A DNA stretch of 64,000 nucleotides from contig CAZOVH010000002.1 in assembly GCA_964583675.1 (NCBI GenBank), forward strand, positions 2,602 through 66,601, read 5' to 3'. The notes beneath the pieces are model-generated. The model made no database searches and was not told the origin of the DNA. It saw only the letters and a list, made by a program, of their open reading frames with translations. This document shows, piece after piece, positions 23,793 through 56,689 of the stretch (positions are counted from its first letter, which is position 1; each line of letters begins with the position of its first letter). The DNA comes from an uncultured Candidatus Saccharibacteria bacterium (GTDB taxonomy: Bacteria; Patescibacteriota; Saccharimonadia; CAILAD01; GCA-016700035). The position numbers were made by a program, and so were the translations under genes.

Positions 23793-26465
23793 ATGGAAGC
23801 ATTATTTTCAGTAATTGGCGCCGTTTTTTCGATAATCGGCATAGCATTGTTTCAGTACTGGGGCTGGACGCTTATTGCTGCATATCTCATTTGGCAAATC
23901 TGGCAAAATAAGCGCAAAGTCGCCTATGTAGAGACTACTGAGCACACTATGCTCCAGATTATCGTACCGAAAAATAACGATAAAAAAGAACTTTCCGCCG
24001 AGCAACTTTTTGCCAGTCTTCATGGTATCTTACGGCCAAAATCGGAGATTGAAAAAGAAGGCTCAATTCAAGAACACATTAGTTTTGAGATTGTCTCTGA
24101 GCAGAATGTTATCAATTTTTATGTATGGGTACCGGTCCATCTTAAGGACTACGTCGAAAGCCAAGTGTACGCTCAGTACCCGACAGTCCAAATCTTGGCC
24201 GATGCCGAAGACTACGCCAAGCGAGATATTGGCGATCAGCTGAGCGTTATTGGCGAAATCACCACCACCAAAGACTTTATTTTTCCGATTAAGACCTTCA
24301 CCACGTTCGAAGTCGACCCGCTAGCCGGCATAACAACCGTTCTTGCCACCCTAAACCCAAATGAACAAATCTGGGTTCAGTACCTCATGCGCCCGGTTGA
24401 CGACTCCTGGCACGCCCGCAGTCTCTCGTATGTCTCAGAGCTGAAAAACGGCAAGAAGAAGGGGCTCCTCGACGGCTGGGAACAAAAACTCTTCTTGCTT
24501 CCGCTGGAAGCCATCCTATACTTCATTCAGGCTCTGGTTAATCCTCCGCAACCAAAAGAAAAGAAGGACGAACCAAAAAAGGAGCTGTCGCCAGGGCAAA
24601 CGACTGTCGCTTCGGCTATCGAGACCAAAGCTGAAAAAATTGGCTACGAAGTAAAAATTCGCGTTGCCTATGTAGGTGACTCTGCAGACCTCGCCAAGCA
24701 ACGCATGCAGGCACTCTATGGTGGCTTCAAGCAATTCAACACTATTAACCTGAATGGTTTAAACGGCGGGGGATACGACACTACTCCTGAAGGCCTTCAA
24801 GAATATCGTGCGCGCTACTTTGAGGGCGGCGGTTTTATCTTAAATGTAGAAGAACTCGCCAGCCTGTATCACTTGCCACATACCAGTGTTGAAACGCCTA
24901 ATATTGCCTGGACCACTACCAAAGTAGGGGAGCCGCCAACCAACCTCCCAACCCTGGCAAATACACCGCAAGAGGCGCTCTCACTCATCGGCACTACCAC
25001 ATTTAGACAAACTAACGTAAAGTTTGGCATTAAACGTGACGACCGCAAGCGCCACCTCTACGTTATTGGTAAATCCGGCTCTGGTAAAAGTTTTGCGCTC
25101 CTCCTTTTAACGCTATCAGACATCTACCATAATCAGGGCTTTGCTATTGTAGACCCTCACGGTGACTTCGCTCAGGATGCGCTGAAATATATTCCAGCGC
25201 ACCGCCACCAGGATGTAGTCTACTTCAACCCGTCTGACTTCGAGAACCCGATTGCTTTCAATCCAATGGAGAACGCCGACCCAAACATGCGCGCCTCAAT
25301 TGCCTCAGAAATTATTGGCGTATTAAAAAAGATGTTTGCCGAGTCCTGGGGCCCTCGCTTAGAACATATTTTACGTTTTACGCTACTAGCACTCCTTGAG
25401 ACACCAGATGCCAACCTGATGGGCATTACTAGAATGCTCACAGATAAAAACTTCCGTAAGAAAGTCGTTGATCAGCTCACCGACGTCACCGTAAAATCCT
25501 TCTGGGTAAATGAATTTGCAAGCTGGAATGACAAGTTTGCCACCGAAGCTGTGGCGCCAATTCTCAATAAGGTAGGGGCTTTTACGGCCAACCCGTTGGT
25601 ACGAAACGTAATTGGGCAAAAGCAATCTAGCTTCGATATCCGCCAAATTATGGACGAAGGGAAGATTCTTATTTGCGACCTCTCACGCGGTCGACTCGGA
25701 GAAGATAACGCCGCCACGCTTGGAGCTCTTTTGATTACTAAAATCCAGCTAGCTGCAATGAGTCGTGCTAATATACCCCTCGATCAACGTCGTCCATTCT
25801 ACCTATACGTCGACGAATTCCAAAACTTTGCTACCGACTCATTTGCCGTAATTCTCTCCGAAGCCCGTAAGTATGGACTCTACCTCACCGTTGCCAACCA
25901 ATACGTAGCCCAGATGCAACAAGAAGTACGTGATGCTGTCTTTGGTAACGTCGGCTCTATGATTACCTTTAGGGTAGGGGCGGACGATGCCACTGCACTT
26001 GCGCGCTACTTTGAGCCAATTTTTGAGCCAAATGACCTCACTAATTTGTCTCTCCAAAACATTTACGTCACCATGTCCATTGATGGGGAAACAAGCATAC
26101 CATTCTCTGCTAAGACCCTCCGTGTACCGGATCCAGAAGCTGATAATGCTCGAACTATCATTGAGCTCTCTAGAAAGCGCTTTAACAGCAACAGGGAAGA
26201 GGTGGAGCAAGTAATCGCCGAATGGAATAACATGGCTGAAAAACCAGAAGATAAGCAGGGAAGACACTCAACTGAAAACATCCCGACACCCGGGGAAGCC
26301 AGCCCCCAGGCAGCTCACGTACAAAACCGCCCTACTCCTGCGGTGGCTGGAGCGCAGCCCAAGAACTACTCCGAGTTGATGCGCCAGAACTCTTCAGGTC
26401 AAAAAACCCATAGTGACCGCAAGCCGTCCGGATCGAATTCGAATCGCAAACGTAAACGTCGTTAA
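23793..26465 (+). CDS. TraD/TraG/VirD4-like type IV coupling-protein-family P-loop ATPase (membrane-anchored) with basic C-terminal tail
   Basis: Two N-terminal TM helices, Walker A VIGKSGSGKS followed by IVDPHGD (cf. T4CP DPKGE), Walker B LYVDEFQNF; tail ...SNSNRKRKRR. Confidence 0.55.
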   Translation: MEALFSVIGAVFSIIGIALFQYWGWTLIAAYLIWQIWQNKRKVAYVETTEHTMLQIIVPKNNDKKELSAEQLFASLHGILRPKSEIEKEGSIQEHISFEIVSEQNVINFYVWVPVHLKDYVESQVYAQYPTVQILADAEDYAKRDIGDQLSVIGEITTTKDFIFPIKTFTTFEVDPLAGITTVLATLNPNEQIWVQYLMRPVDDSWHARSLSYVSELKNGKKKGLLDGWEQKLFLLPLEAILYFIQALVNPPQPKEKKDEPKKELSPGQTTVASAIETKAEKIGYEVKIRVAYVGDSADLAKQRMQALYGGFKQFNTINLNGLNGGGYDTTPEGLQEYRARYFEGGGFILNVEELASLYHLPHTSVETPNIAWTTTKVGEPPTNLPTLANTPQEALSLIGTTTFRQTNVKFGIKRDDRKRHLYVIGKSGSGKSFALLLLTLSDIYHNQGFAIVDPHGDFAQDALKYIPAHRHQDVVYFNPSDFENPIAFNPMENADPNMRASIASEIIGVLKKMFAESWGPRLEHILRFTLLALLETPDANLMGITRMLTDKNFRKKVVDQLTDVTVKSFWVNEFASWNDKFATEAVAPILNKVGAFTANPLVRNVIGQKQSSFDIRQIMDEGKILICDLSRGRLGEDNAATLGALLITKIQLAAMSRANIPLDQRRPFYLYVDEFQNFATDSFAVILSEARKYGLYLTVANQYVAQMQQEVRDAVFGNVGSMITFRVGADDATALARYFEPIFEPNDLTNLSLQNIYVTMSIDGETSIPFSAKTLRVPDPEADNARTIIELSRKRFNSNREEVEQVIAEWNNMAEKPEDKQGRHSTENIPTPGEASPQAAHVQNRPTPAVAGAQPKNYSELMRQNSSGQKTHSDRKPSGSNSNRKRKRR

Positions 26466-41987: not shown

Positions 41988-43661
41988 ATGAGCAGCGAAG
42001 AAATCAACCAACAGCTCAATGAACACACTGTAGAAGCCAAAATTGCCGGGCCACTCGTCTTCACAATTGTAGTAATTATTCTGTTGGATTTTTTACTTGG
42101 TAAAACTTATTCCACCAATCCCTGGGTCATTGGCGGAATCCTGGCTGGCAGCTTACTCTTCTCGCTCAGTCATAGCATTCCGGCACTCAAATTTGTCAAA
42201 CGTCATGGAGTGTACCTCCTCCTGTATCACTTTCTCCTAGCCGCTTCCCTCATATTTATTGTGCCTACGCTATCTTACTACTTGCTTATCTGGACTATAT
42301 TGGCCTATTTAAGTGAGTATTACTACCAAGCGAAAGGCATATATGTAAGTCTTACTGGGCTACTTTTGACGATTGCTGCCGGTACCTGGTACCAATACAA
42401 GCCGGTAACGACCGACGAACTTTGGGGCGCCATCACCTGGTTTGTTGTGCTTTCAGTTATTATTCTTATGCTAAGTCGCGTCATGCTCGGTAATCGCACG
42501 AAAAGACTTGAGCTTTCTGAAAAAATTATTCATGCCGAATACGAACACGAACGCATGATCAACCTAATAAATAGCATGAGTGAAGCCGTGCTGGCTATGG
42601 ATGAAAAAGGCACAATCAATATCTATAACGCTGCGGCTATGGACCTTCTAGACACCAATGTGGAGCTGGCTGGGAAAAATATAGACGAGGTCGTACACTT
42701 GTATGATGCACAAAAGCACCCGATTAGTGCCCTGCAGATCTCGCAAGAAACTCGTTACCTGCAAAAGCGTTCTGATGTCTTTTTACACTTTGGCGAAAAT
42801 GATGAAGTCGCTCTCGAACTTAATATCAGTCGTACTTCTCTCCAATCGGCTCTTTCCAAGAAGCAAGGTTTCACTTTACTACTACGCGACATAACTCAAC
42901 AAAAGAGCTTGGATGAAGAGCGTGATGAATTTATCTCAGTGGTTAGCCATGAACTACGCACTCCAATTACTATTGCCGAAGCCAATGTGTCGATGGCCGA
43001 ACTTCTTGTTAAAAAGTCTGATAAGAAACCTGAAGAAGTGCACGCTGCCCTTGATAAGGCTCACAAGCAAGTGCTTTTTCTGTCAGATATGGTTAATGAT
43101 CTCTCCACTCTCTCACGCGCAGAAAGAACCGATAAAGAGATGGAACTCGAAACCTTTGATATTGGAGATATTCTAACGGAGCTAGCCAGTACGTATCGCC
43201 CACAAGCTGAGGCAAAATCTTTGTATCTCAAACTAGATGCCGATCAAAACTTCCCCAAGGTTACCACTTCTCGCCTTTATTTAAAGGAAATTCTTCAAAA
43301 CTTCATCACTAACGCCATTAAATATACTCAAGCCGGGGGCATAACCGTAGTGGCCCATGGTGAGAATGGGCTCCTAAGGATTAGTGTTGCCGACACCGGT
43401 ATAGGTATTTCTAAGAGTGAACATGAGAAAGTTTTTGATAAATTCTGGCGTTCGGAAGATCCACTTACCCGCCAAACTGGCGGAACTGGTCTTGGGCTCT
43501 ACATTACGGCCAAGCTTGCTCGACGTATCGGTGCTCAAATAGATTTCCGAAGTGAACCAAAAAAAGGCTCCGTCTTTACCCTGAGCCTACCAGTCGTTGC
43601 GGTACAAGATATTGATAAAAAGAACGTCGTCAAGAAAGAGGTAGAAAATATACTCGACTAA
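41988..43661 (+). CDS. sensor histidine kinase (multi-TM N-domain, PAS-like, HisKA, HATPase_c)
   Basis: H-box SHELRTPITI, G-boxes DTGIGI and GGTGLGLYI. Confidence 0.85.
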   Translation: MSSEEINQQLNEHTVEAKIAGPLVFTIVVIILLDFLLGKTYSTNPWVIGGILAGSLLFSLSHSIPALKFVKRHGVYLLLYHFLLAASLIFIVPTLSYYLLIWTILAYLSEYYYQAKGIYVSLTGLLLTIAAGTWYQYKPVTTDELWGAITWFVVLSVIILMLSRVMLGNRTKRLELSEKIIHAEYEHERMINLINSMSEAVLAMDEKGTINIYNAAAMDLLDTNVELAGKNIDEVVHLYDAQKHPISALQISQETRYLQKRSDVFLHFGENDEVALELNISRTSLQSALSKKQGFTLLLRDITQQKSLDEERDEFISVVSHELRTPITIAEANVSMAELLVKKSDKKPEEVHAALDKAHKQVLFLSDMVNDLSTLSRAERTDKEMELETFDIGDILTELASTYRPQAEAKSLYLKLDADQNFPKVTTSRLYLKEILQNFITNAIKYTQAGGITVVAHGENGLLRISVADTGIGISKSEHEKVFDKFWRSEDPLTRQTGGTGLGLYITAKLARRIGAQIDFRSEPKKGSVFTLSLPVVAVQDIDKKNVVKKEVENILD

Positions 43662-44380
43662 GTCTTCTTGTCGGGCCGGATGAAGAATGTAATAGCCATA
43701 AATATACCTAAGAGTGAAATACCTACCATAAGCTGTATGGACTGTGCAATTGTCAAAACTCCATCGCTACCAGCGCTGCTGAATGGCAGTAAGCCAAGAA
43801 CGACAAATACGACGGCGAACATCACGCTTAGCACCCTCAGTCGAACTTTATCGCGCTGTATACTCACAGCCCTACTCTGACGCCAAAACGCGATCGACAA
43901 GAATAAACTGCTCATATACTGCAAAGATAGAACGCTTGTGTATACTCGAGAAACTGGGCTATACAATATGTATGTAGCTCCATCCTGCACTAGAGTTACC
44001 GGAATAAGCATCAAGTCTCGAAGCGCTAAATACGCCGCGGCTAGAGCAGCTACGACGCTTAATGAAACAATTACGCCGCGGGCAAAATCTGACTTAGGTG
44101 CATAGAGACGTGCAACTAACACCCAGAGCGTGACACCTGCAATCAGCTCAAAGAATGAACCAATCATCATCGCTAGCGTCAGAACTTTCGTGTTCTGTGT
44201 AATTACCGCTGGAAAGGCCGAAAGTGAGAGCGTAACCGTATAGCACACCACCGCGACACCCAAATACAGCGTAACTTTATTTTTAGTTTTCACATAGGAG
44301 CGAATGCTGGCAATTGCGAAGACAATAAATAGCGGGACTGCTAAAAGCGCATGAACATAATTCGCTGGAAAATTACTCAC
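43658..44380 (-). CDS. hypothetical polytopic membrane protein (paralog of 44377..45102)
   Basis: ~7 TM; shares VAR(L/I)Y(A/F)P motif and overall topology with neighbour. Confidence 0.5.
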   Translation of the reverse strand: MSNFPANYVHALLAVPLFIVFAIASIRSYVKTKNKVTLYLGVAVVCYTVTLSLSAFPAVITQNTKVLTLAMMIGSFFELIAGVTLWVLVARLYAPKSDFARGVIVSLSVVAALAAAYLALRDLMLIPVTLVQDGATYILYSPVSRVYTSVLSLQYMSSLFLSIAFWRQSRAVSIQRDKVRLRVLSVMFAVVFVVLGLLPFSSAGSDGVLTIAQSIQLMVGISLLGIFMAITFFIRPDKKT

Positions 44381-45102
44381 GCAGCTCCTTGTCTTCTACG
44401 CTGCAGCCAAAATGCTGAGAATAAGAACACAACGCCAAGCAAGAAGGCGGCTGCCAAGACGTAAGAAGTGCTGTTAAGGTTCGCACTAAAATCAAAAATA
44501 GGCCTTAAGACATAAAGTCCACCAACTATCAAAAACAAGATTGCTAACACAAATAATCGAATTTTTTTTGCAACGTCCTGAGTTCCCCACCCTTGTGCAA
44601 GAAAGCGAGCAGCAATCAAGGGTAAACTAAGATATTGAACCGCTGTAACGAGCTGATACCCTCGAGAAAAAGCAAACTCTATCTGCCAGGCCCCATTAAC
44701 ATACTGCATAATTACTGGGTTTGCCAGATTTTCCTGAACGGAAAACCACATGCCGATACAAATAACAATTGCATCCAGGGCCGCGACAACATACATAACA
44801 CCCTTGCGGTCTGGGAAATAGATACGAGCGACAGCCAACCAGATCCAGAACAACGCCAGAAATTGCAGAGCATCACCAATAATAGTAGCATACGTAAGCA
44901 GTATGCTTGTCTCAGGAACGACTAGTGGAGTAATTCCGTAGAAAACTAGTGAAAAAAAGAATGTGATGGCACTTAGACCAAAAAAAGTGTTCAGTAGATT
45001 AGGTCCACTTTTTTGAGACTGAAAGCTCTTATATGCCACAAAGGCTAAAAGTGGCAAAGCTACATACCAATGTATTGCATTAAGCGGAAGACGCATCTGC
45101 AT
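44377..45102 (-). CDS. hypothetical polytopic membrane protein (paralog of 43658..44380)
   Basis: Tandem paralog, 4-nt overlap with downstream gene. Confidence 0.5.
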   Translation of the reverse strand: MQMRLPLNAIHWYVALPLLAFVAYKSFQSQKSGPNLLNTFFGLSAITFFFSLVFYGITPLVVPETSILLTYATIIGDALQFLALFWIWLAVARIYFPDRKGVMYVVAALDAIVICIGMWFSVQENLANPVIMQYVNGAWQIEFAFSRGYQLVTAVQYLSLPLIAARFLAQGWGTQDVAKKIRLFVLAILFLIVGGLYVLRPIFDFSANLNSTSYVLAAAFLLGVVFLFSAFWLQRRRQGAA

Positions 45103-45133: not shown

Positions 45134-45209
45134 TGGAGCCCGCGAAGGGACTCGAACCCATAACCTACGGTTTACAAAACCGTTGCTCTACCAATTGAGC
45201 TACGCGGGC
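45134..45209 (-). tRNA. tRNA-Thr (anticodon UGU)
   Basis: Reverse complement folds: acceptor GCCCGCG/CGCGGGC, D-arm GCTCAATTGGTAGAGC, anticodon stem ACGGT/ACCGT loop TTTGTAA, T-loop TTCGAGT (one U-U mismatch in T-stem), CCA encoded. Confidence 0.75.
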
Positions 45210-45572
45210 TGGTGCAGCATCCTAGCCGAAGTTAGAACTTTGCTACTCAACTATTCTATAACCTAACCTGATATGGCGCAACAGATTATTTGTACCCCCT
45301 ACCCTTTCCTATATATTGAATGATATCTTTCAATTACCATTATCCTATATCGGTAAAGTAGACTAGCTTATTGTGTATGTTTTTATATGTAGTTGTGCTA
45401 AGTAGCCACTTTCATATTTTGTTATGTTTTGTTAGGTTTTTTGAGGTTATATGTGCCATACGTAATTGAGGATATTAATAATCAAAATAGATTGAAGATT
45501 AGAACTATATTCAAACTTGAAAGGTAGGTTGATAACAAGACTATCAATCATATCGCTATTCTAAAAGATACC

Positions 45573-45794
45573 TTACCTCTTAGAATTTTTTAGGGCATTT
45601 ATTTGCTTCTGCAAGCTTTCTAGCTCTTCTTTAATATTTTCAATATCATCCTCTATACTTTCCTGGTCACCACCAAGCAACCTGACTGCCTCCTCTAGCT
45701 TTACGTCTGCTCGTGCATTATTAGTGAGGTTTTGATCAGTTTTATATAGCCAAATAACCAATAAAACGATTACTACTGCCAATACGAACTCCAT
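45573..45794 (-). CDS. hypothetical small membrane-anchored coiled-coil protein (island cargo)
   Basis: N-terminal TM LAVVIVLLVIWLY then acidic coiled coil. Confidence 0.4.
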   Translation of the reverse strand: MEFVLAVVIVLLVIWLYKTDQNLTNNARADVKLEEAVRLLGGDQESIEDDIENIKEELESLQKQINALKNSKR

Positions 45795-45894
45795 TTAAAA
45801 CTCCTTTTTATTATGGGTACCTAATTGTAATCATCACTACTCAAACCTCATCCGTTGGTCAACTTCCATCTATATAATAACTACAGAGCCGTAG

Positions 45895-46461
45895 CTACAG
45901 TGCACTCTCCATAACTTTTAGCATTTCCTGCTGCTGGGTCGCAGTATAGTTGCTAGATACACGCAAAACTACATTACCATTCACCTTATAAGCGCCTGCA
46001 CTAATTGCCCCTGTCTGGAATTGTTCAAGATATTCACCCCTTGTTGCTGCATCTGCCCCAGAAGCAAATACTTCTATTGTGCCACCAGCATCTGTCCCAT
46101 AATTATCCTTACTGATGTCTATTTGGTTTCCATTCTCGTCGACAGGCTGATAGCCAGTACGTGTGTCATAGAAGCTCCCAGCGTATTGATACTCACCCTT
46201 TTTACCAAGTAAGTTGTTTGAGTCTGTAGCCTCAGTTACAACATAAACAGATTGAACTGTTGGGGTTTCAGCTTTTACTTTATCTAATACATCTTGTACT
46301 AATTCATTACCAGTCTTATTTTCTGCCTCGTTTTGAGTTTGATCTGTAGTTACAGAGCGAGGTTGCACGCTATTATTATTTGTATTGAAGTAGTACATCC
46401 CCGCGACCGCAGCTACAACTACCACCAAAACTACCACGCCTACTAGTACTTTCTTATTCAT
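45895..46461 (-). CDS. hypothetical secreted/membrane-anchored protein (island cargo)
   Basis: N-terminal TM/signal anchor VLVGVVVLVVVVAAVAGMYYF; Thr/Asn/Gly-rich ectodomain. Confidence 0.5.
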   Translation of the reverse strand: MNKKVLVGVVVLVVVVAAVAGMYYFNTNNNSVQPRSVTTDQTQNEAENKTGNELVQDVLDKVKAETPTVQSVYVVTEATDSNNLLGKKGEYQYAGSFYDTRTGYQPVDENGNQIDISKDNYGTDAGGTIEVFASGADAATRGEYLEQFQTGAISAGAYKVNGNVVLRVSSNYTATQQQEMLKVMESAL

Positions 46462-46562
46462 ACAACACTCCTATAATTTACAATTTCATTGCTTACTCTA
46501 TCATGCATGATTTTCTTTTCAAATATCTACTGCATTCTAATCACCAATATACTAAGGTCGAA

Positions 46563-47240
46563 TTAATATGACTCACAGCCATATCCATCTCCATCTCTAT
46601 CAAAGCGATGCTTATCGACACCGATAACAGTTACGCTGAAACCAATGTCTCCACAATCGAGATCGTATGAAACATTCGGGACACAGGGACTGTAGTTTGG
46701 ATCACAATTTCCCGCTGGTACTTGAGCTTTGGGCTGTGTCGCTGGCTGCTGGGTAACTGGGGCTGGCGGTGCTTGAGGAGTAGGAGTTGCAGCTGGCGTT
46801 ACTACAGCTGCAACCTTAGTACCCTTAGCAATACGCTTTACCGAGGGCTGCTCTACAATGACCTCACCTACTCTTTCTTTTTCTTCTTCAACTCCACCCG
46901 ATATTAGTACTCTATATGTAACTGCTTTCTTCCCTTCACGACCTTCCTGTAAAACTTTCGTTGTGCCTTCTTCTAGGTTCGAGTCATCTACTGTTTCAGT
47001 CGCATATCCAACTGTCTCGAAATCTGTATATTCCTTAAAACTATCTGGAGAAGACCCTGCGAACATACCTAGATAGAAAAGCATCATGATGGCAGACAAT
47101 ACGCTCAACGATACTTTTTGCCAAGTTGGCCGCAAAGACACGATCCATAAATACCAGAGAATAAATGGCGGGAAAAAGACGATCGCAGCTATGAACCCTG
47201 CAGGTCGTAAGTACCAAGGTCTTTTACTTTGAGCGTTCAT
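46563..47240 (-). CDS. membrane protein with G5 domain and C-terminal Excalibur calcium-binding domain
   Basis: Two N-terminal TM; G5-like LEEGTTKVLQEGREGKKAVTYRVL...VKRIAKGTK; Pro-rich linker; Excalibur motif DRDGDGYGCE. Confidence 0.55.
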   Translation of the reverse strand: MNAQSKRPWYLRPAGFIAAIVFFPPFILWYLWIVSLRPTWQKVSLSVLSAIMMLFYLGMFAGSSPDSFKEYTDFETVGYATETVDDSNLEEGTTKVLQEGREGKKAVTYRVLISGGVEEEKERVGEVIVEQPSVKRIAKGTKVAAVVTPAATPTPQAPPAPVTQQPATQPKAQVPAGNCDPNYSPCVPNVSYDLDCGDIGFSVTVIGVDKHRFDRDGDGYGCESY

Positions 47241-47953
47241 CTATCTACCTTTCCGTTACAGGTGTTTGCAGCCCAAAGCCCTCTAGTAGCATCTTTTGCC
47301 TGTTGCTCCAAGCTTATAAAATCATTTAGCTTAGCAGTAGGATATTTTCTGTACGCAAAAGCATAACCTTCCTCGACCATTACTGCATTGACTAAAGTTC
47401 CATCGGCTAGATATACATACCGCAACAAGCGACCGTATTTGTCTTTATCGCCCTGGCTCTCATCTACTACCAATACAACTGGCTTACCCTCTACGAGCTC
47501 TTTCATCTTGCGAGAAGCTTCAAACCCATAGCACTGCACTGGCTTCCGAGGATCTTTTGTCTCTGGAGTGTCGATTCCTAGCAACCTAACCTTATAGGTT
47601 ACGCCATCTGAGACCACTGTTATCGTGTCGCCATCCACAACGTTTTTGACGACCGCAGAAGAATCGGGCAGAGACTGATCAATTATCGCCTTGTCCTGCT
47701 TCTCTAAGACTTGGCTACTTGCCTCTTTCTCTAGACTAGCTATAGGTTGAGATGATATGGATTTATCATCTGGGGTTTCATATTCATCAGGGTCAGTAGT
47801 AAGAGAGCTGGCGTACAGTTGATTCATTTGAGCAACTTCTCTGGGTTGAAGCACAAAACTATACCATATGGTGTATAGTGTCATAACTAATATTAAGTGA
47901 AATACCAACATTAGCCATATTGTTGCTTTATGCTTTTTCCGACCTCGTGCCAT
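47237..47953 (-). CDS. membrane-anchored thermonuclease (staphylococcal nuclease homolog)
   Basis: N-terminal TM; SNase core VVDGDTITV...VRLLGIDTPE and downstream Arg/Glu/Tyr catalytic region. Confidence 0.75.
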   Translation of the reverse strand: MARGRKKHKATIWLMLVFHLILVMTLYTIWYSFVLQPREVAQMNQLYASSLTTDPDEYETPDDKSISSQPIASLEKEASSQVLEKQDKAIIDQSLPDSSAVVKNVVDGDTITVVSDGVTYKVRLLGIDTPETKDPRKPVQCYGFEASRKMKELVEGKPVVLVVDESQGDKDKYGRLLRYVYLADGTLVNAVMVEEGYAFAYRKYPTAKLNDFISLEQQAKDATRGLWAANTCNGKVDR

Positions 47954-48096
47954 TAATTGAATTCTACCCCTATATACTCAAATCGTATACTAAATGCGTT
48001 ATTGGTATAGCCACCCGCAGTTAAAGATACTCCTTCCGCTCCGCTTATATATAGACTGGAGGAGTAGCTATTAAGAGCTGCTGTGACGGGGGGTGT

Positions 48097-48582
48097 TCAT
48101 CTGCAGGTAGTTGTCCAGCCCCCAAACGGATTATAGGTGGAGTTACAGGTTGTGGACGGTACAGGTGATGGACTAGGCAAGGGTTGTAGTTGTAATGGAG
48201 CCGTGTAACTCGGTTGGGCTTGAGAAGTGCTGGTTGGTTTAGTGTTTGCATCATTTAGTAGCTGCCAGTAACCCTTCTTAAGGTCGGCCAGCTCCGTACC
48301 ATATTTGGCAATTAAATTATTCCTAGCATCCACTGTCTTTATTAATTGTTCGTTCTCCGCTGTCGCCTTTTCTTTTTCCGCAGTTATCTTAGATAGCTGG
48401 TCCAGTCCAGTCTTCTGGAGTCTGACAGTGTATACCGATAAACCCAACAAAGATACTAGTAATACATAAAAGCCGATCTGGTAAAATTTTGTTGTCCTGC
48501 TAGATTTTCTGGGATCCGAATTCCTTTTCAGCTCGGCAACTTCCGCCTCAAGTTTTTCAATATTTACTCGTTGGCCCTTCAT
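48097..48582 (-). CDS. hypothetical membrane protein with flanking coiled coils and Pro/Ser/Thr-rich Cys-pair tail
   Basis: Central TM FYQIGFYVLLVSLLGLSVYTV; heptad-rich segments; tail TTCNSTYNPFGGWTTTCR. Confidence 0.45.
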   Translation of the reverse strand: MKGQRVNIEKLEAEVAELKRNSDPRKSSRTTKFYQIGFYVLLVSLLGLSVYTVRLQKTGLDQLSKITAEKEKATAENEQLIKTVDARNNLIAKYGTELADLKKGYWQLLNDANTKPTSTSQAQPSYTAPLQLQPLPSPSPVPSTTCNSTYNPFGGWTTTCR

Positions 48583-48657
48583 AGCGCGTTCTCTCTAGTG
48601 CTTGATAAATGTAAATAAAAAATATTGGATATATACGACATTCGCATATGAACACTG

Positions 48658-49263
48658 CTACTCATCCAGCGACTCACTCAGCTTTTTTAACCCTTTTTTA
48701 TAGTATTTCATTTGGGTGTCTTGTGGCAGTTTTTGAATATCATCATCAGAGATATTAATTTTATTCACCTCTCGAAATCCTAGGCGAATAACGCTCATCT
48801 TCGCTAGGTCTTCATCGTTATGCGGACCGCTTTCTGTAGCAGTATTTTTCTTATCTATCAAGCCAGTCGAAGAGTTGCTAATACGACTCTTTGGCATCTT
48901 GGCTAACTGCTTGTTTTTATTGTAATACGCTACCCAACTAAGTAATGGCAATACCCAAATCGAGAAGCCACCCAAAAGAAATAAAATCATATTTGCTATT
49001 GCTGCAATGTTCTCCATCAGAGCTCGTGAATCAGCTGATTCACTACTATTTTGACCAAGTATAAAGTTGATTAGAGCATACAGTGCCACTGTAAGGCCAA
49101 ACATTATAAAAGGAGACCACAACCACCTATACATGCTGGTTACGAGCCTCTTTCTATCGGGTTGCATCTTAGAGAGTTGGCCAGCCGTGAAAGCCAGCTG
49201 AAACAATAAGAATATGTTTACGAAGAGCGCAACTATAATCATGGGGAAAGAGGAGTTTTCCAT
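48658..49263 (-). CDS. hypothetical multi-TM protein, short member of island paralog family (single C-terminal KLGF..VN..DI.K.P...KYY..GL repeat)
   Basis: N-terminal membrane domain and C-terminal repeat both align to 50565..51647. Confidence 0.5.
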   Translation of the reverse strand: MENSSFPMIIVALFVNIFLLFQLAFTAGQLSKMQPDRKRLVTSMYRWLWSPFIMFGLTVALYALINFILGQNSSESADSRALMENIAAIANMILFLLGGFSIWVLPLLSWVAYYNKNKQLAKMPKSRISNSSTGLIDKKNTATESGPHNDEDLAKMSVIRLGFREVNKINISDDDIQKLPQDTQMKYYKKGLKKLSESLDE

Positions 49264-49323
49264 GCACTGAATTATACACCACCAAGATCTAAGCGCTGAA
49301 TGCTATCTATCTACAAACAGCTT

Positions 49324-49677
49324 TCACTTGTTGATCTTTTTGCGATACTCGATTTGGTGATATAAAGCTACCAGAGTATAAAAAAACCCACCGATAAGGA
49401 AAGCGAAGCCGCCTGCCCAGAAAAATGAGATTACAATTGCAATTGCAAAAGCACTTAATCCAACCTTCAATTCCCTATTAGCTTTTTCCTTAATTAATGA
49501 AGGATTATCCGTTTCTTCTTTTTTCGTTTCATTGGTGACAATACTAATATACTCAAGGGCCTTCTCTTTTGATCCAGCCTGTTTCTTAATTGCTCTGACT
49601 ATGCTTCCTTTTGAATAAAACTGTGATTTTAAACTTTTTATTTTCTCTTCGATCTCTGGTGGCACTGATTGATTCAT
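49324..49677 (-). CDS. hypothetical protein with C-terminal double TM hairpin
   Basis: Soluble Lys/Glu-rich N-domain then GLSAFAIAIVISFFWAGGFAFLIGGFFYTLVALY. Confidence 0.4.
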   Translation of the reverse strand: MNQSVPPEIEEKIKSLKSQFYSKGSIVRAIKKQAGSKEKALEYISIVTNETKKEETDNPSLIKEKANRELKVGLSAFAIAIVISFFWAGGFAFLIGGFFYTLVALYHQIEYRKKINK

Positions 49678-49694
49678 GATGTAATCCTTACCTC

Positions 49695-50120
49695 CTATTC
49701 ACCCTTACGAAATGTAGAAAACTCACCCAGGTTTGCCAATATATCTCTATCTATCGATTCGATAAATGCACCGAACATCTTTTTATCATATCCGTAGTAT
49801 TCAGACTCTACTACCAACGTAAGGTCCTCAGGGTCACCATCATCCTTTGACTCTTCATAAAACCATTTACTATATACTGCTTGATTAACCGTATTTATTG
49901 CATTAAAAAAATCTTTACTTCCTAGCGCCTTAGGGTTGAAGCCCGACCATCTCATCGTGACAGTAAGCATATCGCCATTAAAATTTAATAGATAGGAAGC
50001 TCCACGGTCTCGCTCAGCAAAATACAATGATCCTTTATTTTTGCCTATATCTTCGGTTTCAAAACCTAAAAACTCCATGTGTTCAAGAATCTTGTCTTTG
50101 TTGCTTGCCTTATCTGTCAT
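49695..50120 (-). CDS. hypothetical cytoplasmic protein (weak YbjN-like resemblance)
   Basis: Only soluble protein in cassette; start chosen at MTDKA to avoid overlap; family call tentative. Confidence 0.35.
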   Translation of the reverse strand: MTDKASNKDKILEHMEFLGFETEDIGKNKGSLYFAERDRGASYLLNFNGDMLTVTMRWSGFNPKALGSKDFFNAINTVNQAVYSKWFYEESKDDGDPEDLTLVVESEYYGYDKKMFGAFIESIDRDILANLGEFSTFRKGE

Positions 50121-50568
50121 TACCTTGTCCTTTCTTAATCGTGTCCCAGTCACGCAATTTTTCACTTGGGCGGATAGTTTTTAGATTATCATTTTTTACA
50201 GCTTCGGAAGAGTGCTTTTTGCTGGACGCCTGAAAGTCATCTTGTCCCTCTAAATAATCTCTACGCTCGTCCCCTGCTAAATAACTTTCAATAGCCTCCG
50301 CCTTAAGCTTATTAACACTAAATATGATCATTATCCCCGCCCATAAGCTACCATACATGAACGTAGTAGAAAATGCAGAAACGACTATTAGTACAAGGCT
50401 AGACCATACAATTGGGACTATAATAACTGGCCAATTCATTTTTTTTATCTCCCCCGTTCTAAGAAGTTTCCTTCTAAGGGGCAGTGTTGCAAATATACTT
50501 CCCAATATATTTGACCATAAGAATAAACCGACGACCCAACCAATAAAACCTATTAATAGACCTGTCAC
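50110..50568 (-). CDS. hypothetical membrane protein (3-4 TM) with charged C-terminal tail
   Basis: ORF with hydrophobic N-terminal two-thirds. Confidence 0.4.
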   Translation of the reverse strand: MTGLLIGFIGWVVGLFLWSNILGSIFATLPLRRKLLRTGEIKKMNWPVIIVPIVWSSLVLIVVSAFSTTFMYGSLWAGIMIIFSVNKLKAEAIESYLAGDERRDYLEGQDDFQASSKKHSSEAVKNDNLKTIRPSEKLRDWDTIKKGQGNDR

Positions 50569-51647
50569 TTCAGCATCCTCAATCCAGCTTGATAATATTT
50601 ATCTAGTTCCTTTTCTGGCATTTTTTCGATATCTTCAGTAGCTACAGAAAAATTATTCACATGCTTAAATCCCAGTTTAATTATTTCTAGCTTTACCCGT
50701 AACTCATCTCCACTGATCTTTTCTTCATTTGTCGGGCTTAGCGCGTGTTTTCTATAGTTACTAACCCTCATGCCTTCTTCCAGGTATGATTCTAGCTCTC
50801 TCTTGGAAAGATTTTCTAATACCTCTGGAAAAACATTCTTTACATTGTGACGATGCGAATAACCGCGCCTAATTAGCATTTCCTTCTCATCCACTGTCAA
50901 GCCTGCAGCCGCTGCCCTATCCAGCTTAGCTACTCTCTTTTCAAGAGCTGAGGCATCCAATTTTTTGATTTTATGAACTGAGTGTATGGCAATTATCGTC
51001 CACACTAAAACTATCAAGGGTATAATTCCTCCCGAAACTAGAATTGTAGACATTAACAAAATCCACAGTTTCGCTAGCAAGAATTGATTATTGCTGCGAA
51101 TTGAACGTCCAAGCATTATGAAGTAGGTTCCTAGAAGCAAGATAATAATAAATGCAACTAAATAGCTCGGCAAATCACCCCCTTCAGGACCTGAAAGCAA
51201 CAATAACCCTGACGATATAATAATTATTGCAAACCCCATTTGATAACTTCCATCTCCCGCCCGAGTTATCAAACGTAAATAACGCTCCACCTTTTTTTCT
51301 TCTGGTGATAATGCCCTTATAGGCTGTTTCAAGGGCTCATTCAGTTCACGTAGTGCCTGGTAGGTTACATACCAGCTATAAAACGGCAATATAAATGCCG
51401 CTATGAAGCCCAGGAGAAACAGTATTGTGTTCAGAATTGTGCTGATGTTCGCACCCAAATCACTATCAGCATCAATGACCGCATTGGTGAAGCCATATAA
51501 TAACAAGCAAGACAAAACGATAATTATTGGAAGCCAAAGCCAGAAGTAAGCCTTTTTCAATCGTTTTCGCTGAATTGGGTTTTTCTTCTTCTGTACTAAA
51601 GACCTAAACTCTAGAACTACAAGGATTATCAGATTTATTAAAAACAT
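50565..51647 (-). CDS. hypothetical multi-TM protein, long member of island paralog family (two copies of C-terminal ~35-aa repeat)
   Basis: RKRLKKAYFWLWLPIII... aligns with 48658..49263 N-domain; repeats GYSHRHNVKNVFPEVLENLSKRELESYLEEG and GFKHVNNFSVATEDIEKMPEKELDKYYQAGL. Confidence 0.5.
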   Translation of the reverse strand: MFLINLIILVVLEFRSLVQKKKNPIQRKRLKKAYFWLWLPIIIVLSCLLLYGFTNAVIDADSDLGANISTILNTILFLLGFIAAFILPFYSWYVTYQALRELNEPLKQPIRALSPEEKKVERYLRLITRAGDGSYQMGFAIIIISSGLLLLSGPEGGDLPSYLVAFIIILLLGTYFIMLGRSIRSNNQFLLAKLWILLMSTILVSGGIIPLIVLVWTIIAIHSVHKIKKLDASALEKRVAKLDRAAAAGLTVDEKEMLIRRGYSHRHNVKNVFPEVLENLSKRELESYLEEGMRVSNYRKHALSPTNEEKISGDELRVKLEIIKLGFKHVNNFSVATEDIEKMPEKELDKYYQAGLRMLK

Positions 51648-51749
51648 TCTAGTTATTCCTACATCTAACTATATACCCAGTAAACCAAGCATACAATTAT
51701 ACTTGATATGGTGTTAAGACCAGCCTTAAGCTGATATCATTGCTTCGAG

Positions 51750-52340
51750 ATGACTCCACAGCCCAATAAACAGTATATGCCAAGCTTAAAGTACAGGAGC
51801 GATTGGCACAGGTATTTGGTCTTCAATGACCCCGAGTTTATTAATGCTTATAATTCGATTGATCAAGACGATAAGCAAAGTATGTATCAGAAATCTTGTG
51901 CATTCGAGCTGCTTGCCAGATCTTTCGCACTCACGACTTCCGATATGAACATTTTTAAATTATCTAAATCTATATACATAGAGGGTAAAACCACGGGAGC
52001 TAACTTAGAGTTTGATCCGATGTCTGGAAAGTATTCAATTGTTTTTCAGCCAGATACTCCTCTAGTCGAAATACAGGATGAGCTAAACAAATTTAAAAAC
52101 TTGAGAGACTCACTCTTCCCGATTAAGCAAACTAAGCGAAAGCCACCACACGACCCTGCACTTATATATGCCATCTTCAAAGCTCGGCAACAAAAGCTAA
52201 CTTTCAATAAAATTTTCGAGCTATATGAGAACAGCACACTGCCCTACTATGGCGGCGACAATCAAAAGTATCAGAGCCGTGAAGATCTCGAGAAGTACTA
52301 CGACAACAATAAGCCAATAAGAACTTTAAACAAATCTTAG
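51750..52340 (+). CDS. hypothetical protein (196 aa), first plus-strand gene of island replication/integration module
   Basis: Clean ORF, Lys/Tyr-rich, no family recognised. Confidence 0.4.
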   Translation: MTPQPNKQYMPSLKYRSDWHRYLVFNDPEFINAYNSIDQDDKQSMYQKSCAFELLARSFALTTSDMNIFKLSKSIYIEGKTTGANLEFDPMSGKYSIVFQPDTPLVEIQDELNKFKNLRDSLFPIKQTKRKPPHDPALIYAIFKARQQKLTFNKIFELYENSTLPYYGGDNQKYQSREDLEKYYDNNKPIRTLNKS

Positions 52341-52478
52341 ATTGGTTATACAACTAGTTTTCCACCTGCTTTAATGGCATCTGAGATGACATTGGTAGTC
52401 CCCTGAGAAATAGTCATCTCCTCGGGGGACTACCTATTAACAATAGGTATCAGACGTAGCCTAGCCACGGGGAAAGCT

Positions 52479-52688
52479 ATGAAACTTAGCGATGATAATA
52501 TCACTCAGCTTCAACACATACTGAAAAGCCAAAACGATATTGATGCAACCGACTTGGAGGCTCAGCAAATTGGCCTGGCAGTAATGCGCTTCGTGTTAGC
52601 CAAGCATCTAAATACTTTCAAGGATACCTCGGAGGAAAAGAGAGATGAAAATAACGCCGTTGAGCATCCTACAAAGCCAACATATTGA
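52479..52688 (+). CDS. hypothetical small acidic protein (69 aa) overlapping start of primase gene
   Basis: ORF only; could be regulator/excisionase-like, unverified. Confidence 0.25.
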   Translation: MKLSDDNITQLQHILKSQNDIDATDLEAQQIGLAVMRFVLAKHLNTFKDTSEEKRDENNAVEHPTKPTY

Positions 52689-54765
52689 GTACCAAGAAAT
52701 ACAAAACGAGTTAGTCATTAAATGTCAGTTTAGTGATTGCGACGATGACAGTAGGGGCAAAGAAGCTCATATGTATGTAAATAAAGATTCAGGCGCATAC
52801 TACTGTCATAAGTGCTATGCAAAGGGCGGCTTGCAAGATCTATTGGAGCACTTCGGTATAGATGCTAAATCCATTGGGAGTGATCCTAAGAATGACCTGA
52901 AACAAACCGCAATCAAATACCACCTCGGCCTGCCTCCGTATATAAAAGATTACTTAGTGAAAGATAGGCTTCTTCATGATGAAGAGATCAATGATCGATT
53001 ACTTGGTTTTATGGTAGACCAATCTGGAGTTGGCTGGATTACCATTCCTGTGTTTAGTCAGCATAACGATATATTATTCATCAAAATGAGAAAAGACCCA
53101 TCGTTGCCCAATTCCATTAGCCCCAAATATAAGTCGTCTGGTGGATCAGCAGCCATATATAATGCGCAAATCATCAATGATCAGCCAGAACGACTAGTTA
53201 TCTGTGAGGGTGAATTTGACTGCATGCTTTTGTCATCCCTTGGCGTTCCAGCGATTAGCTCAACTGCTGGCGCAGGTACCTTTAAGGATCAGTGGGTAGA
53301 CCAACTGTCATTCGTACGTGAGTTCTATGTAATTATGGATAATGATGACCCAGGAAGAAAAGGAGCTGAAGCCTTAATTCAGAAGCTACATGCAGCGCAT
53401 CCCGACGCATCGATTATGAACGTCCAGTTGCCGTCCGTTTTAGGGAAAGGTGGAGATATTACTGACTTCATCAAGCATGAACTTGGAGATATCGATGATT
53501 TACTCAGTCCAGATAGTAAGCTTGTGAGTCTCGCAGCTGGATCAAGACCGATTAACCCCTCCTCTTTTAGTGAAATGAGTCTAGATGAGCTAGTTGAGAT
53601 ATTATCCATGACTATCAAATTCGATCGAGAAAACAAACTTATAACTTTTTTCGCATGCCTATCAGCTTACACCCTCTCAGATCAGATCAATGTTAGCTAT
53701 AACGCACCAAGCTCATCGGGCAAAACATATATCGTCAACGAAGTGGCTAAACTATTTCCAGATGCCGATAAAATCGAATCAAATGGTGCAAGCCCAACTT
53801 CCTTTTTCCACGGTTCAGGCAAAATCGATGAGAAAAGAAATGCAAAAATCATTAACCTCTCTCGGAAAATCCTTATCTTCTACGAACTCCCAAACCCAAT
53901 ACTGCAATCTAAACTGCGATCCGTTTTATCCCATGACAGCTGGGAGATAAATCACCGTATTACCAATAAAGACAAAAAGGGTGCCCATCGAGTCGAACAT
54001 ATAATTCTTGAGGGCTTCCCTGCCACTATATTTTGCTCTGCCAATATGCGGCTAGACGAACAAGAAGCAACCAGAGCAATACTCTTAAGCCCTGAAGTAA
54101 GCCAGGAGAAGTTGAGCGAAGCTGTGCATCTACAAGCTCTAAAAGCCGCAAACCCCGAAAAGTACCATACAGACCTTGACTCCGATCCAAGACGGAAGTT
54201 ACTTAAAGATCGCATACTCGCGATCAAGCGTGAGCGAGTAGATCATGTAACTCTAAACCCCTCAAGTACTAGAGAAATAGAAAAACGTTTTATGGCGAGC
54301 TTCCATAGATTTAAGCCAAGACACATGAGAGATGTTGGGCATTTGATACAACTCATTAAAGCTATTACCCTACTGAATATTTGGCACAGACAAGATTCTG
54401 ATGGGAAAATTGTCGTGTCACAAATAGACATTGAACAGGGATTAAACCTTTGGATGCACTATCGAGAAAGCCAGGATCTTAATATTAGCCCTATTGCCAC
54501 CTCATTCTACAAGCAATATATATTACCAGCATATTTAGAAAAACGTGGAGACAATTATGAGTTCAGTGAAGGTGTCACACGGCAAGAAGTATGTAAATAC
54601 TATCTCAAAATTGAGCGCGCTCCATACAACGATGAGTACCTAAGAAAACAAATCCTGCCCCAGCTTGAGAATAGCGGACTAGTATCGCAAGAACAGCCGC
54701 AGAGCGGCGATAAGCGTACAAAGCACATCATTCCTAAGTGGTTCTTCCGCGATGAAGATATATAG
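52645..54765 (+). CDS. DnaG-type primase (CHC2 zinc finger + TOPRIM) fused to C-terminal P-loop NTPase domain (replication initiator of the element)
   Basis: Zinc finger CQFSDC...YYCHKCYAKGG; TOPRIM LVICEGEFD and IMDNDDPGRKG; Walker A NAPSSSGKTYIV in C-terminal half. Confidence 0.7.
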   Translation: MKITPLSILQSQHIEYQEIQNELVIKCQFSDCDDDSRGKEAHMYVNKDSGAYYCHKCYAKGGLQDLLEHFGIDAKSIGSDPKNDLKQTAIKYHLGLPPYIKDYLVKDRLLHDEEINDRLLGFMVDQSGVGWITIPVFSQHNDILFIKMRKDPSLPNSISPKYKSSGGSAAIYNAQIINDQPERLVICEGEFDCMLLSSLGVPAISSTAGAGTFKDQWVDQLSFVREFYVIMDNDDPGRKGAEALIQKLHAAHPDASIMNVQLPSVLGKGGDITDFIKHELGDIDDLLSPDSKLVSLAAGSRPINPSSFSEMSLDELVEILSMTIKFDRENKLITFFACLSAYTLSDQINVSYNAPSSSGKTYIVNEVAKLFPDADKIESNGASPTSFFHGSGKIDEKRNAKIINLSRKILIFYELPNPILQSKLRSVLSHDSWEINHRITNKDKKGAHRVEHIILEGFPATIFCSANMRLDEQEATRAILLSPEVSQEKLSEAVHLQALKAANPEKYHTDLDSDPRRKLLKDRILAIKRERVDHVTLNPSSTREIEKRFMASFHRFKPRHMRDVGHLIQLIKAITLLNIWHRQDSDGKIVVSQIDIEQGLNLWMHYRESQDLNISPIATSFYKQYILPAYLEKRGDNYEFSEGVTRQEVCKYYLKIERAPYNDEYLRKQILPQLENSGLVSQEQPQSGDKRTKHIIPKWFFRDEDI

Positions 54766-54948
54766 GAATGCATGGTGGGTACCCTTACCGAAAGATAAAT
54801 AAACGGATATAATGGCTATGTTGAAACACCCAGTAATTATGCGTGAAGTCTTTTTATTTCCGCTCGTTAAGGGCGGCTTGGTACGGAAAGTGGCTTTGTG
54901 CTACTGGATGTTTCAACAGCCGAGCCGTCCTTTTTGATTGGAGAAATT

Positions 54949-56586
54949 ATGAGTAATTTAAAGTATATCGCTTATGTACGCAAGTCTACCGAAGATGAAG
55001 AACGGCAAGTTCTATCCAGAGCTGCTCAACGAGACAAGATTAATGAAATATTCGGCGAACTTACTATAATTGACTACCTCGATGAGAGTAAAAGTGCGTT
55101 TGAGCCAGGGAAAAGGCCTATTTTTGATCAAGTTTTGGCCAAGTTAGATTCTGGCGAAGCTGATGGGATAATTGCTTGGCATCCAGATCGACTTTCACGA
55201 AACGCCATAGATGCTGCTGCCATAAGCCATCGTATTAGCAAAGGAACAATTAAGGATCTGAAGTTCGCGAGCTTCAGCTTTGACAACTCACCAGAAGGCA
55301 TCATGATGCTTCAGATGACGATGTCTCAATCTCAATACTTTTCAGCAAAGCTGAGTAAAGATATTAGACGAGGCAATGAAAAAAAGCGTCAGCTAGGTGG
55401 CTTAACAGGAAAAGCTATGGAGGGCTACCTGAATGATCGCATGAATAAGACAACCATTATTGATCCAGCTCGATTCCCGTTAATCCGTAAGGCGTTTGAC
55501 CTATATTTAACTGGAGAATATAGCGTCCAAGCAATTCTACGTATACTCAATGATGAATGGGGCTATACGACCCTTAAGCGAAAAAGGACTGGAGGGGGCC
55601 CACTCTCTCGAACATCTCTATACAATATATTTCGAAACGTGCGATACGCTGGACTAATACCAGACCCTTACGACCCAGAAAAGCTGTATAAATCTGAGTA
55701 TCCAGCAATGATTACGATTGAAGAGTATGACCAAGTTCAGCTACTGCTAGGTAGAAAAGGACTTCCTCGATTGGTAGCAAAGAAAGAATTTGCACTACGT
55801 GGGCTAATTCGCTGTGGTGAATGTGGATGCAGCATTACCGCTCAAACCAAAAAGAAGAAAATGAAGTGCGGGACGATAAAGCCTTATACGTACTATCATT
55901 GTACTGGTAAACGACCTGGCTGCAGCCAAAAAAGTATATATGTAAGAGAAGAGCAGCTATATAAGGAGCTGACAATTCTACTAGATAAATATCAGCTAGA
56001 CGAACGTCTATTTGACTGGGCCCTAGAGGCCTTTAAGGATATGGCGGCAGCTGAAGTGACTGAAAGAAATCATGTGCAATTGATACAGGACAATAAAATC
56101 CATGATACTCAACGTCAACTGGATAAACTGCTAGATTTAGCAACCAAAGAACTTATAACTACTGAAGAATATTCACTGAAAAGCGAACAGTTGAAAGCAG
56201 CACTAAATACACTTCAGAAAGATCAAACAAATACTGCAGCCCGCACTAAGAACTGGTATGAGTTTGCTACAAATACCCTACACACACTCTGCGATGCTGA
56301 AAATAGGTTCATTAACGGAGATATAGTGGTAAAGAAAGAAATACTACTGGCTATTGGTCAGAACCCTACCTTATTGGATGGAAAATTGCATATCACACCA
56401 GTAAAATGGTTGAATCCAGTCGCAAACTCAACTGAGCATATTACAAAGGAGCTTAATAAGGTTAGAACCTTATCTCTACAGATGCAAAAAGCCTCCGAAG
56501 AGGCTGTTCGTCATCAATGGTGCAGGGGGAGGGATTCGAACCCCCGAAGGCATAAAGCCGACAGATTTACAGTCTGTTGCGTTTGA
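54949..56586 (+). CDS. large serine recombinase (resolvase/invertase catalytic domain + recombinase domain + zinc ribbon)
   Basis: N-terminal YVRKSTEDEERQ with catalytic Ser, DGIIAWHPDRLSRN; Cys4 CGECGC...CTGKRPGC; SD GGAG 7 nt before ATG at 54949; 3' end overlaps tRNA-Tyr on opposite strand. Confidence 0.8.
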   Translation: MSNLKYIAYVRKSTEDEERQVLSRAAQRDKINEIFGELTIIDYLDESKSAFEPGKRPIFDQVLAKLDSGEADGIIAWHPDRLSRNAIDAAAISHRISKGTIKDLKFASFSFDNSPEGIMMLQMTMSQSQYFSAKLSKDIRRGNEKKRQLGGLTGKAMEGYLNDRMNKTTIIDPARFPLIRKAFDLYLTGEYSVQAILRILNDEWGYTTLKRKRTGGGPLSRTSLYNIFRNVRYAGLIPDPYDPEKLYKSEYPAMITIEEYDQVQLLLGRKGLPRLVAKKEFALRGLIRCGECGCSITAQTKKKKMKCGTIKPYTYYHCTGKRPGCSQKSIYVREEQLYKELTILLDKYQLDERLFDWALEAFKDMAAAEVTERNHVQLIQDNKIHDTQRQLDKLLDLATKELITTEEYSLKSEQLKAALNTLQKDQTNTAARTKNWYEFATNTLHTLCDAENRFINGDIVVKKEILLAIGQNPTLLDGKLHITPVKWLNPVANSTEHITKELNKVRTLSLQMQKASEEAVRHQWCRGRDSNPRRHKADRFTVCCV

Positions 56587-56604
56587 CCGCTTCGCTACCC
56601 CTGC
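56518..56604 (-). tRNA. tRNA-Tyr (anticodon GUA), type II with long variable arm
   Basis: Reverse complement: acceptor GCAGGGG/CCCCTGC, anticodon loop CTGTAAA, long variable arm CGGCTTTATGCCTTCG, T-loop TTCGAAT, CCA encoded. Confidence 0.85.
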
Positions 56605-56614
56605 ATGCTTGATC

Positions 56615-56689
56615 TGGAGCCCAAACCGAGGATTGAACTCGGGACCTCTTCCTTACCATGGAAGCGCTCTACCACTGAGCTATTTGGGC
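56615..56689 (-). tRNA. tRNA-Thr (anticodon GGU)
   Basis: Reverse complement: acceptor GCCCAAA/TTTGGGC, D-arm GCTCAGTGGTAGAGC, anticodon stem CTTCC/GGAAG loop ATGGTAA, T-arm CCGAG-TTCAATC-CTCGG, CCA encoded. Confidence 0.85.

Follow-up and report, generated by a model that had tools for sequence, protein, structure and literature searches.

Two described systems come closest to the proteins considered here. Phage phi29 p16.7 is anchored in the membrane, binds DNA through a small, helical domain at its C-terminus, and organises replication of the phage DNA. SHOCT (PF09851) is a short, helical, promiscuous and mostly C-terminal domain whose function is unknown (PMC3581485), and proposals for SHOCT-like domains are that they localise proteins to the inner membrane face or assemble them there, in membrane-proximal complexes (PMC11237479; PMC3581485). 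The subject of the present analysis is a C-terminal tail common to the products of two genes, termed A and B, of an uncultured Candidatus Saccharibacteria bacterium; they lie in a 64,000-nucleotide (nt) stretch of contig CAZOVH010000002.1 (assembly GCA_964583675.1, positions 2,602 to 66,601 of the forward strand), which we call the window. Like SHOCT and SHOCT-like domains, the tail is short, all-helical, mostly C-terminal and promiscuous, can occur in tandem, and is carried, on the predicted cytoplasmic side, by membrane and zinc-ribbon proteins; unlike SHOCT, which has two helices in about 28-30 amino acids (aa) and is widespread, it has three helices in about 45 aa, a conserved motif of its own (LGF..IN, SD.D, LP, RYY..G), and a very restricted occurrence, in tens of clusters. 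With p16.7 the likeness is one of functional analogy only: both are membrane-anchored, are encoded by mobile genomes near replication genes and end in a small, helical, cytoplasmic C-terminus, but the tail is not notably basic, and p16.7 was absent from its PDB sequence and structure matches. Judged by analogy, the tail seems to be a functional analogue of SHOCT and not a homologue.

Gene A (48658..49263, minus strand) is an open reading frame (ORF) of 201 aa whose product consists of a module with three transmembrane (TM) segments, here the N-module, a linker and one tail domain. Gene B (50565..51647, minus strand), of 360 aa, has an N-module followed by a four-TM module and a predicted cytoplasmic tail in two copies. 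That the two are paralogs, alike in membrane domain and in tail, had been proposed by an earlier sequence-only reading, and was borne out by BLASTP, which aligned them in two separate high-scoring segments: one in the N-modules (A residues 14-120 with B residues 3-102; 107 aa, 31% identity, E=2e-14) and one in the tails (A 127-195 with B 294-359; 69 aa, 36% identity, E=2e-12). Alignment against composition-preserving shuffled controls (n=2000 per comparison) had been set beforehand as the test, and for every module pair listed the observed score was reached by none of the 2000 shuffles: the Smith-Waterman score was 144 for the two N-modules (shuffles 29.8±5.2, z=22) and 110 for the A tail and the last 60 aa of B (shuffles 24.2±4.7, z=18), and the internal repeat of B, residues 226-300 against 301-360, scored 62 (shuffles 24.7±4.6, z=8).

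Homologous proteins recovered by the searches below are designated by P-numbers, and the contigs or loci carrying relatives by L-numbers. Orthologs of A form a cluster of 14 members at 97% identity (P0004), and those of B are P0002 (83%) and P0003 (74%). An AGGA ribosome-binding site lies 9 nt 5' of the B start codon. Upstream of A there is an extended -10 element of the TGnTATAAT type (TGTATAAT; 49261-49280, minus strand) whose end is 7 nt upstream of the first ATG; an alternative start at M8, chosen by gene callers elsewhere, would give a protein of 194 aa. No Shine-Dalgarno sequence was found at either candidate start, and the A message may be leaderless. A and B are real, paralogous inner-membrane proteins that by their sequences look expressed, and are encoded in a single accessory gene cassette.

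The tail itself had been described as a novel C-terminal repeat of about 35 aa, of which the shared unit stands; its length does not, being about 45 aa. A hidden Markov model (HMM) with 24 members of the family as its basis recognises three copies in the window and no more. The canonical domain of A occupies residues 151-196 (48676..48813, minus strand; 70.7 bits) and is the one aligned by BLASTP with the second copy of B, itself a canonical three-helix domain at residues 315-360 (50568..50705, minus strand; 75.2 bits). The third is a degenerate, 'type 1' copy at residues 256-296 of B (50760..50882, minus strand), placed by the HMM at about 254-295 and recognised over HMM positions 4-44 with 14.8 bits and an independent E-value (i-E) of 1.2e-3. 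A second, more diverged copy in B had been part of the sequence-only reading, and both the HMM and the internal-repeat shuffles uphold it; direct comparison of this copy with the A tail gave a weak signal (z=2.6). A degenerate copy also precedes the canonical one in P0008, P0010, P0011, P0012 and P0015, and since the pair recurs in this way the two-copy tail is an old arrangement.

Column statistics give the tail consensus as AKI.IIKLGFK.IN.I.[ILV]SD.D[IML]..LP.KEL.RYYK.G.K.L. G12 and G42 are invariant and N17, D24, D26, P31, R37, Y38 and Y39 nearly so, and near-invariance at polar positions points to a specific surface for binding; on average the domain carries a net charge of +1.4. AlphaFold2 (AF2), run on the 24-sequence alignment, folds the domain with high confidence (predicted local distance difference test, pLDDT, 95.9; predicted TM-score, pTM, 0.75) into a long helix (residues 2-17), a short one (23-27) and a second long one (31-45). 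The AF2 model of full-length B is all-helical and of lower confidence, and both tail copies in it show the same three-helix pattern.

To find the extent of the family, a profile made from A, B and their orthologs was run by exhaustive HMMER search against 1.84 billion cluster representatives, with a cut-off of E<=1e-3. It returned 32 relatives, and the three modules of B match different sets of them. The tail domain is present in about 22 of the 32, in proteins of 66-350 aa and in diverse settings: C-terminal to unrelated TM anchors; C-terminal after a zinc ribbon and DUF2569, or after a DUF4234-like region; N-terminal and followed by TM segments (P0019, P0020); in two tandem copies after an N-terminal zinc ribbon, with no TM segment (P0006, P0018); and standing alone (P0022, P0025, P0033). 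Other searches added little. Word-indexed searches with full-length A and B returned close orthologs only; when the 24-copy tail alignment served as query, P0025 alone came back, the index being too coarse for a 46-aa profile. Two pattern scans of 185,579 GTDB species representatives yielded no confirmed relatives, as far as patterns can tell; a pattern scan of IMG/VR likewise yielded none, and tblastn of B against known plasmids and phages gave no match. A scan of JGI metagenomes gave three loci. The tail family is thus rare and known so far from metagenomes only. These architectures show the tail to be an independent domain of about 45 aa, the type of a small, rare, previously unannotated and architecturally promiscuous family.

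The N-module spans residues 1-100 in B (51348..51647, minus strand) and, as placed by BLASTP, shuffles and hydropathy, residues 8-120 in A (48904..49242, minus strand); its motifs are W.LW.P, N..LFLLG and LP..SW, and by profile search it is otherwise confined to A and B orthologs, with a part of it in P0011. Hydropathy gives three TM helices in A and seven in B. The sequence-only reading had attributed the difference to an extra membrane segment inserted in B: the insertion is there, but it is not a single segment. It is a separate four-helix TM module, residues about 118-228 (50964..51296, minus strand), with the motifs RI.RAG, G[KR].I and GIIPLI; positions 114-243 of the B profile match P0005, P0007, P0009, P0017, P0024, P0026, P0028, P0031 and P0032, which have no N-module. 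B is a mosaic of three modules, namely N-module, independent 4-TM module, and a tail with a degenerate and a canonical copy. Counts of lysine plus arginine flanking the membrane alternate from loop to loop, 0/5/1/3 in A and 0/8/0/4/0/2/0/5 in B, and because they fit the positive-inside rule, both proteins are predicted to have the N-terminus outside, the C-terminus inside and the tails in the cytoplasm. A cytoplasmic location had been supposed for the repeats from the start, and fits equally the fusion of the domain to zinc-ribbon proteins without TM segments in P0006 and P0018.

The earlier impression that the repeat resembles no known domain held throughout: HMMs of Pfam, NCBIfam, PADLOC and PHROGs, and Foldseek against PDB and BFVD, gave no significant match. 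In Pfam hmmscan of both tails at E<=10 no family covered the tail, and SHOCT and DUF1707 were not listed; in 30 members, Pfam recognised zinc ribbons, DUF2569, SHOCT and DUF4234 outside the tail domain and nothing over it. No NCBIfam, PADLOC or PHROGs model covered the domain, and the best Foldseek values with the tail model were E=1.3 against PDB and E=0.4 against BFVD. SHOCT matched just 2 of the 30 members, and inspection placed these matches at the C-terminal ends of P0009 and P0032, outside the tail domain. Both proteins are homologs of the 4-TM module: in P0009 SHOCT takes the position that the tail has in B, and in P0032 it follows a tail-like copy. A leucine-rich repeat (LRR) was considered and rejected. 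An 18-residue stretch of the tail, I.LSD.DIEKLP.KEL, resembles one LRR unit (LxLxxNxLxxLP), but its predicted structure is a loop, the short helix and the first part of helix 3, with none of the beta-strands of a solenoid; one unit alone cannot form the LRR fold; and the PDB matches to designed LRR proteins are sums of 6-7 matches of 1-4 bits each, with i-E >=390. The likeness is a chance resemblance of motifs. PHROGs lysis families were also compared, as a test for holins and spanins, and neither A nor B matched.

Comparison of B with its orthologs shows where constraint lies. The tail copies are the best-conserved part, with identities of 98-100% (copy 1) and 85-100% (copy 2), against 87-88% for the N-module and 48-60% for the 4-TM module. 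Nei-Gojobori ratios of nonsynonymous to synonymous substitution (dN/dS) are below 0.3 in every module where they could be computed (0-0.06 for copy 1; 0.22 for copy 2 against P0003), and all computable modules are under purifying selection. Synonymous divergence (dS) between the orthologs is 0.15-0.37 in the N-module and tail, whereas the synonymous sites of the 4-TM module are near saturation against P0002 (dS 0.97) and saturated against P0003 (proportion of synonymous differences, pS, 0.78). With dS so far above that of the modules on either side, we infer that the central module has had a different history, through intragenic recombination or module exchange.

The surroundings of the two genes are those of an accessory region. 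B, ORF152, ORF141, ORF117, A and ORF161 form a block on the minus strand, 48128..51725, whose interior is replaced in L019. There the flanks match the window, at 92.7% on the primase side, ending at position 51726, and at 96% on the side of the SNase-G5 pair described below, from 48127; between them lies an unrelated 1.55-kb cassette with P0020, whose tail domain is N-terminal and followed by TM segments, and a 225-aa ORF. A different interior between matching flanks identifies the block from B to ORF161 as a swappable cassette, and the tail domain is encoded by both alternatives. The three small genes between B and A (49324..50568, minus strand) are ORF152 (50110-50568), ORF141 (49695-50120) and ORF117 (49324-49677); they are packed tightly with B, start and stop codons overlapping or adjoining, and are also present in the orthologous loci L001 and L005. 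None of the three has a match in Pfam, PHROGs, NCBIfam, PADLOC or PDB, and the idea that ORF141 is a YbjN/CesT-like chaperone found no support in the comparisons with family and structure databases. ORF161 (48097-48582, minus strand) has a TM segment, a coiled coil and a tail rich in Pro, Ser and Thr, with a weak PHROGs match to an Rz-like spanin (E=1.1e-3).

Next to the cassette, between B and tRNA-Tyr, is a 4.73-kb integrase-primase mini-element (51715-56445) with its genes on the plus strand: ORF196 (51750-52340), ORF69 (52479-52688), a Toprim primase (52645-54765) and a large serine recombinase (54898-56586). L001-L004 lack 51715-56445 and have the tRNA-Tyr flank (56446) joined directly to the B promoter region (51714), with A and B kept; to judge from the junctions, they represent the empty site of the mini-element. 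At the mini-element junction an ACAC(C)ATAT motif is shared by the window, L001 and L019. The integrase reading frame extends past the right junction by about 140 nt, into host sequence and in antisense orientation to tRNA-Tyr. On the other side of the cassette is a minus-strand gene pair (46563-47953) that encodes a TM-anchored staphylococcal-type nuclease (SNase) and, overlapping it by 4 nt, a protein with G5 and Excalibur domains. L001 and L019 have the SNase-G5 pair as well, and L010 has the G5 protein, beside another tail-domain protein. The genes A, ORF161, SNase and G5 lie in window positions 46562-49282, where the DNA shares 98.9% identity with L001 2604-5324; the part from the B tail through ORF117 is 74% identical, and the flanking host genes 65-72%. 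So high an identity amid host flanks so diverged suggests that the sub-block from A to G5 has been exchanged horizontally in recent times.

The guanine-plus-cytosine (GC) content of the A/B stretch is lower than elsewhere (0.39-0.42 against 0.46-0.49), and the low-GC block lies between tRNA-Thr(tgt) and, at its opposite end, tRNA-Tyr and tRNA-Thr(ggt). A direct-repeat search for attachment (att) sites flanking the island gave chance repeats only, and the flanking tRNA-Thr genes, compared with each other, have no long identical segment in common. L005, a contig of 11,508 nt, is 100% identical to window positions 45165-56672 and ends inside both flanking tRNA-Thr genes; these ends may reflect either island boundaries or differences between strains at the tRNA genes. 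Two further observations concern the rest of the window. Overlapping minus-strand genes at 43658-44380 and 44377-45102 encode multi-TM paralogs of 240 aa (24% identity over 188 aa, E=3e-16) with no Pfam assignment, and are conserved beside a histidine kinase in L001. In the host part, beside topoisomerase I, a plus-strand gene (23793-26465) encodes an 890-aa protein with weak VirD4/TraD-like matches, well below cut-offs.

Several other relatives also lie beside genes of mobile elements. In L011, P0010 is translationally coupled to a tyrosine integrase, its gene overlapping the integrase stop codon; the contig has in addition a DnaG-like primase, a DnaB helicase, ParA and MerR. L011 and L012 (8287 nt, from two samples) are circular permutations of one another, 100% identical and with a 30-nt overlap of their ends, which implies, for these sequences, a circular element of 8.26 kb. 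In L010, the neighbours of P0011 include a G5 protein (48% identical to that of the window) and a serine recombinase (44% identical), which is homologous to the one in the window. P0005 is next to an FtsK/SpoIIIE protein.

What might such a tail do? Our preferred reading, which we hold to be evenly balanced between right and wrong, is by analogy that of a sub-membrane module for docking or self-association. Interchangeable membrane modules would be coupled through it to a shared cytoplasmic partner, or to each other, as for example A with B, and its role would be the one proposed for SHOCT-like domains. In favour of this reading are the variety of anchors that carry the tail, its strong conservation among B orthologs, its near-invariant polar residues, its confident fold and predicted cytoplasmic location, and the way SHOCT takes its place in P0009. 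Because the cassette has been swapped between related islands, and because relatives lie beside integrases, primases and ParA, the A and B proteins probably serve an envelope function linked to the element, such as exclusion, defence or modification of the host surface. Several points weigh against docking or self-association as the role of the tail. The 45-residue three-helix unit has a generic shape, so that the lack of fold matches is weak evidence. SHOCT itself failed a test of oligomerisation (PMC3581485), and the analogy with it therefore carries little mechanistic weight. Two relatives, P0025 and P0021 (L008, L018), are in ordinary-looking chromosomal contexts. Among neighbour genes compared over the loci none was common to all, and sharing with the window was confined to the G5 and serine recombinase genes of L010. 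Finally, many loci have a single tail-protein copy, so that pairing in cis is not obligatory.

The same evidence can be read in other ways. The adjacency of A and B as paralogs would agree with a shared tail that is only what is left of a recent duplication and has no function of its own; this we find scarcely credible, for about 22 representative clusters have the tail on anchors unrelated to one another, no other part of the B orthologs is so well conserved (dN/dS 0-0.22), and it folds with a pLDDT of 95.9. The clustering of N17, D24, D26, R37, Y38 and Y39 near the loop between helices 1 and 2 and the start of helix 3 would suit a regulatory switch in which a small ligand or a metal ion is bound through the N..SD.D and RYY residues; but the pattern, as we read it, is unlike canonical EF-hand and DxDxDG loops, no ligand-binding fold was matched in structure, and a domain of this size leaves very little room for a ligand pocket, all of which makes such a switch very unlikely. 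A role functionally like that of phi29 p16.7, in which the tail would by analogy tether the DNA of the element, or its replication or integration proteins, to the membrane, is suggested by the repeated adjacency to primase, helicase, integrase and ParA genes, by the overlap of the L011 tail gene with the integrase stop codon, and by the helical, cytoplasmic nature of the domain. We consider it quite unlikely nevertheless: the mean net charge is just +1.4, PDB searches by sequence and structure gave no DNA-binding fold, L001-L004 retain A and B without the integrase-primase module, and some relatives are in plain chromosomal contexts.

A further explanation is that the membrane modules are exclusion or abortive-defence effectors of the element, perturbing the membrane or blocking the entry of competing DNA, with the tail as the cytoplasmic sensor or regulatory domain that gates them. 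Replacement of the cassette between flanks otherwise 93-96% identical, synonymous sites at or near saturation in the 4-TM module beside near-identical N- and tail modules, indicating intragenic exchange, the adjacency of relatives to integrase and primase modules, and the lower GC content of the A/B stretch all agree with it. Yet no PADLOC or PHROGs model matches, selection is purifying rather than diversifying (dN/dS <0.3), and no member of the family has a toxin-like or nuclease domain fused to it; we rate this explanation as unlikely. We regard as improbable, too, a bolder form of the docking proposal, that the tail is a docking module dedicated to small elements of uncultivated bacteria, integrative or plasmid-like, which would form a class so far unrecognised, with front ends that can be swapped. 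The 3-TM, 4-TM, DUF2569-like and DUF4234-like front ends would in that case plug into one cytoplasmic process of the element, perhaps membrane-tethered replication or integration, or entry exclusion, and the cassette would be a modular specificity system.

What is new here is a small domain family that folds confidently, together with two TM modules. The family compares in kind with accessory domains of the SHOCT type and is not a categorically new system. It is defined clearly enough for a Pfam/DUF entry to be started from it. The recurrence of the tail domain in a swappable cassette next to integrase-primase modules gives access to the accessory biology of small mobile elements, barely annotated, in poorly studied, uncultivated bacteria, and a cytoplasmic partner common to these proteins, should there be one, would on discovery give a function to a whole set of otherwise opaque membrane proteins.

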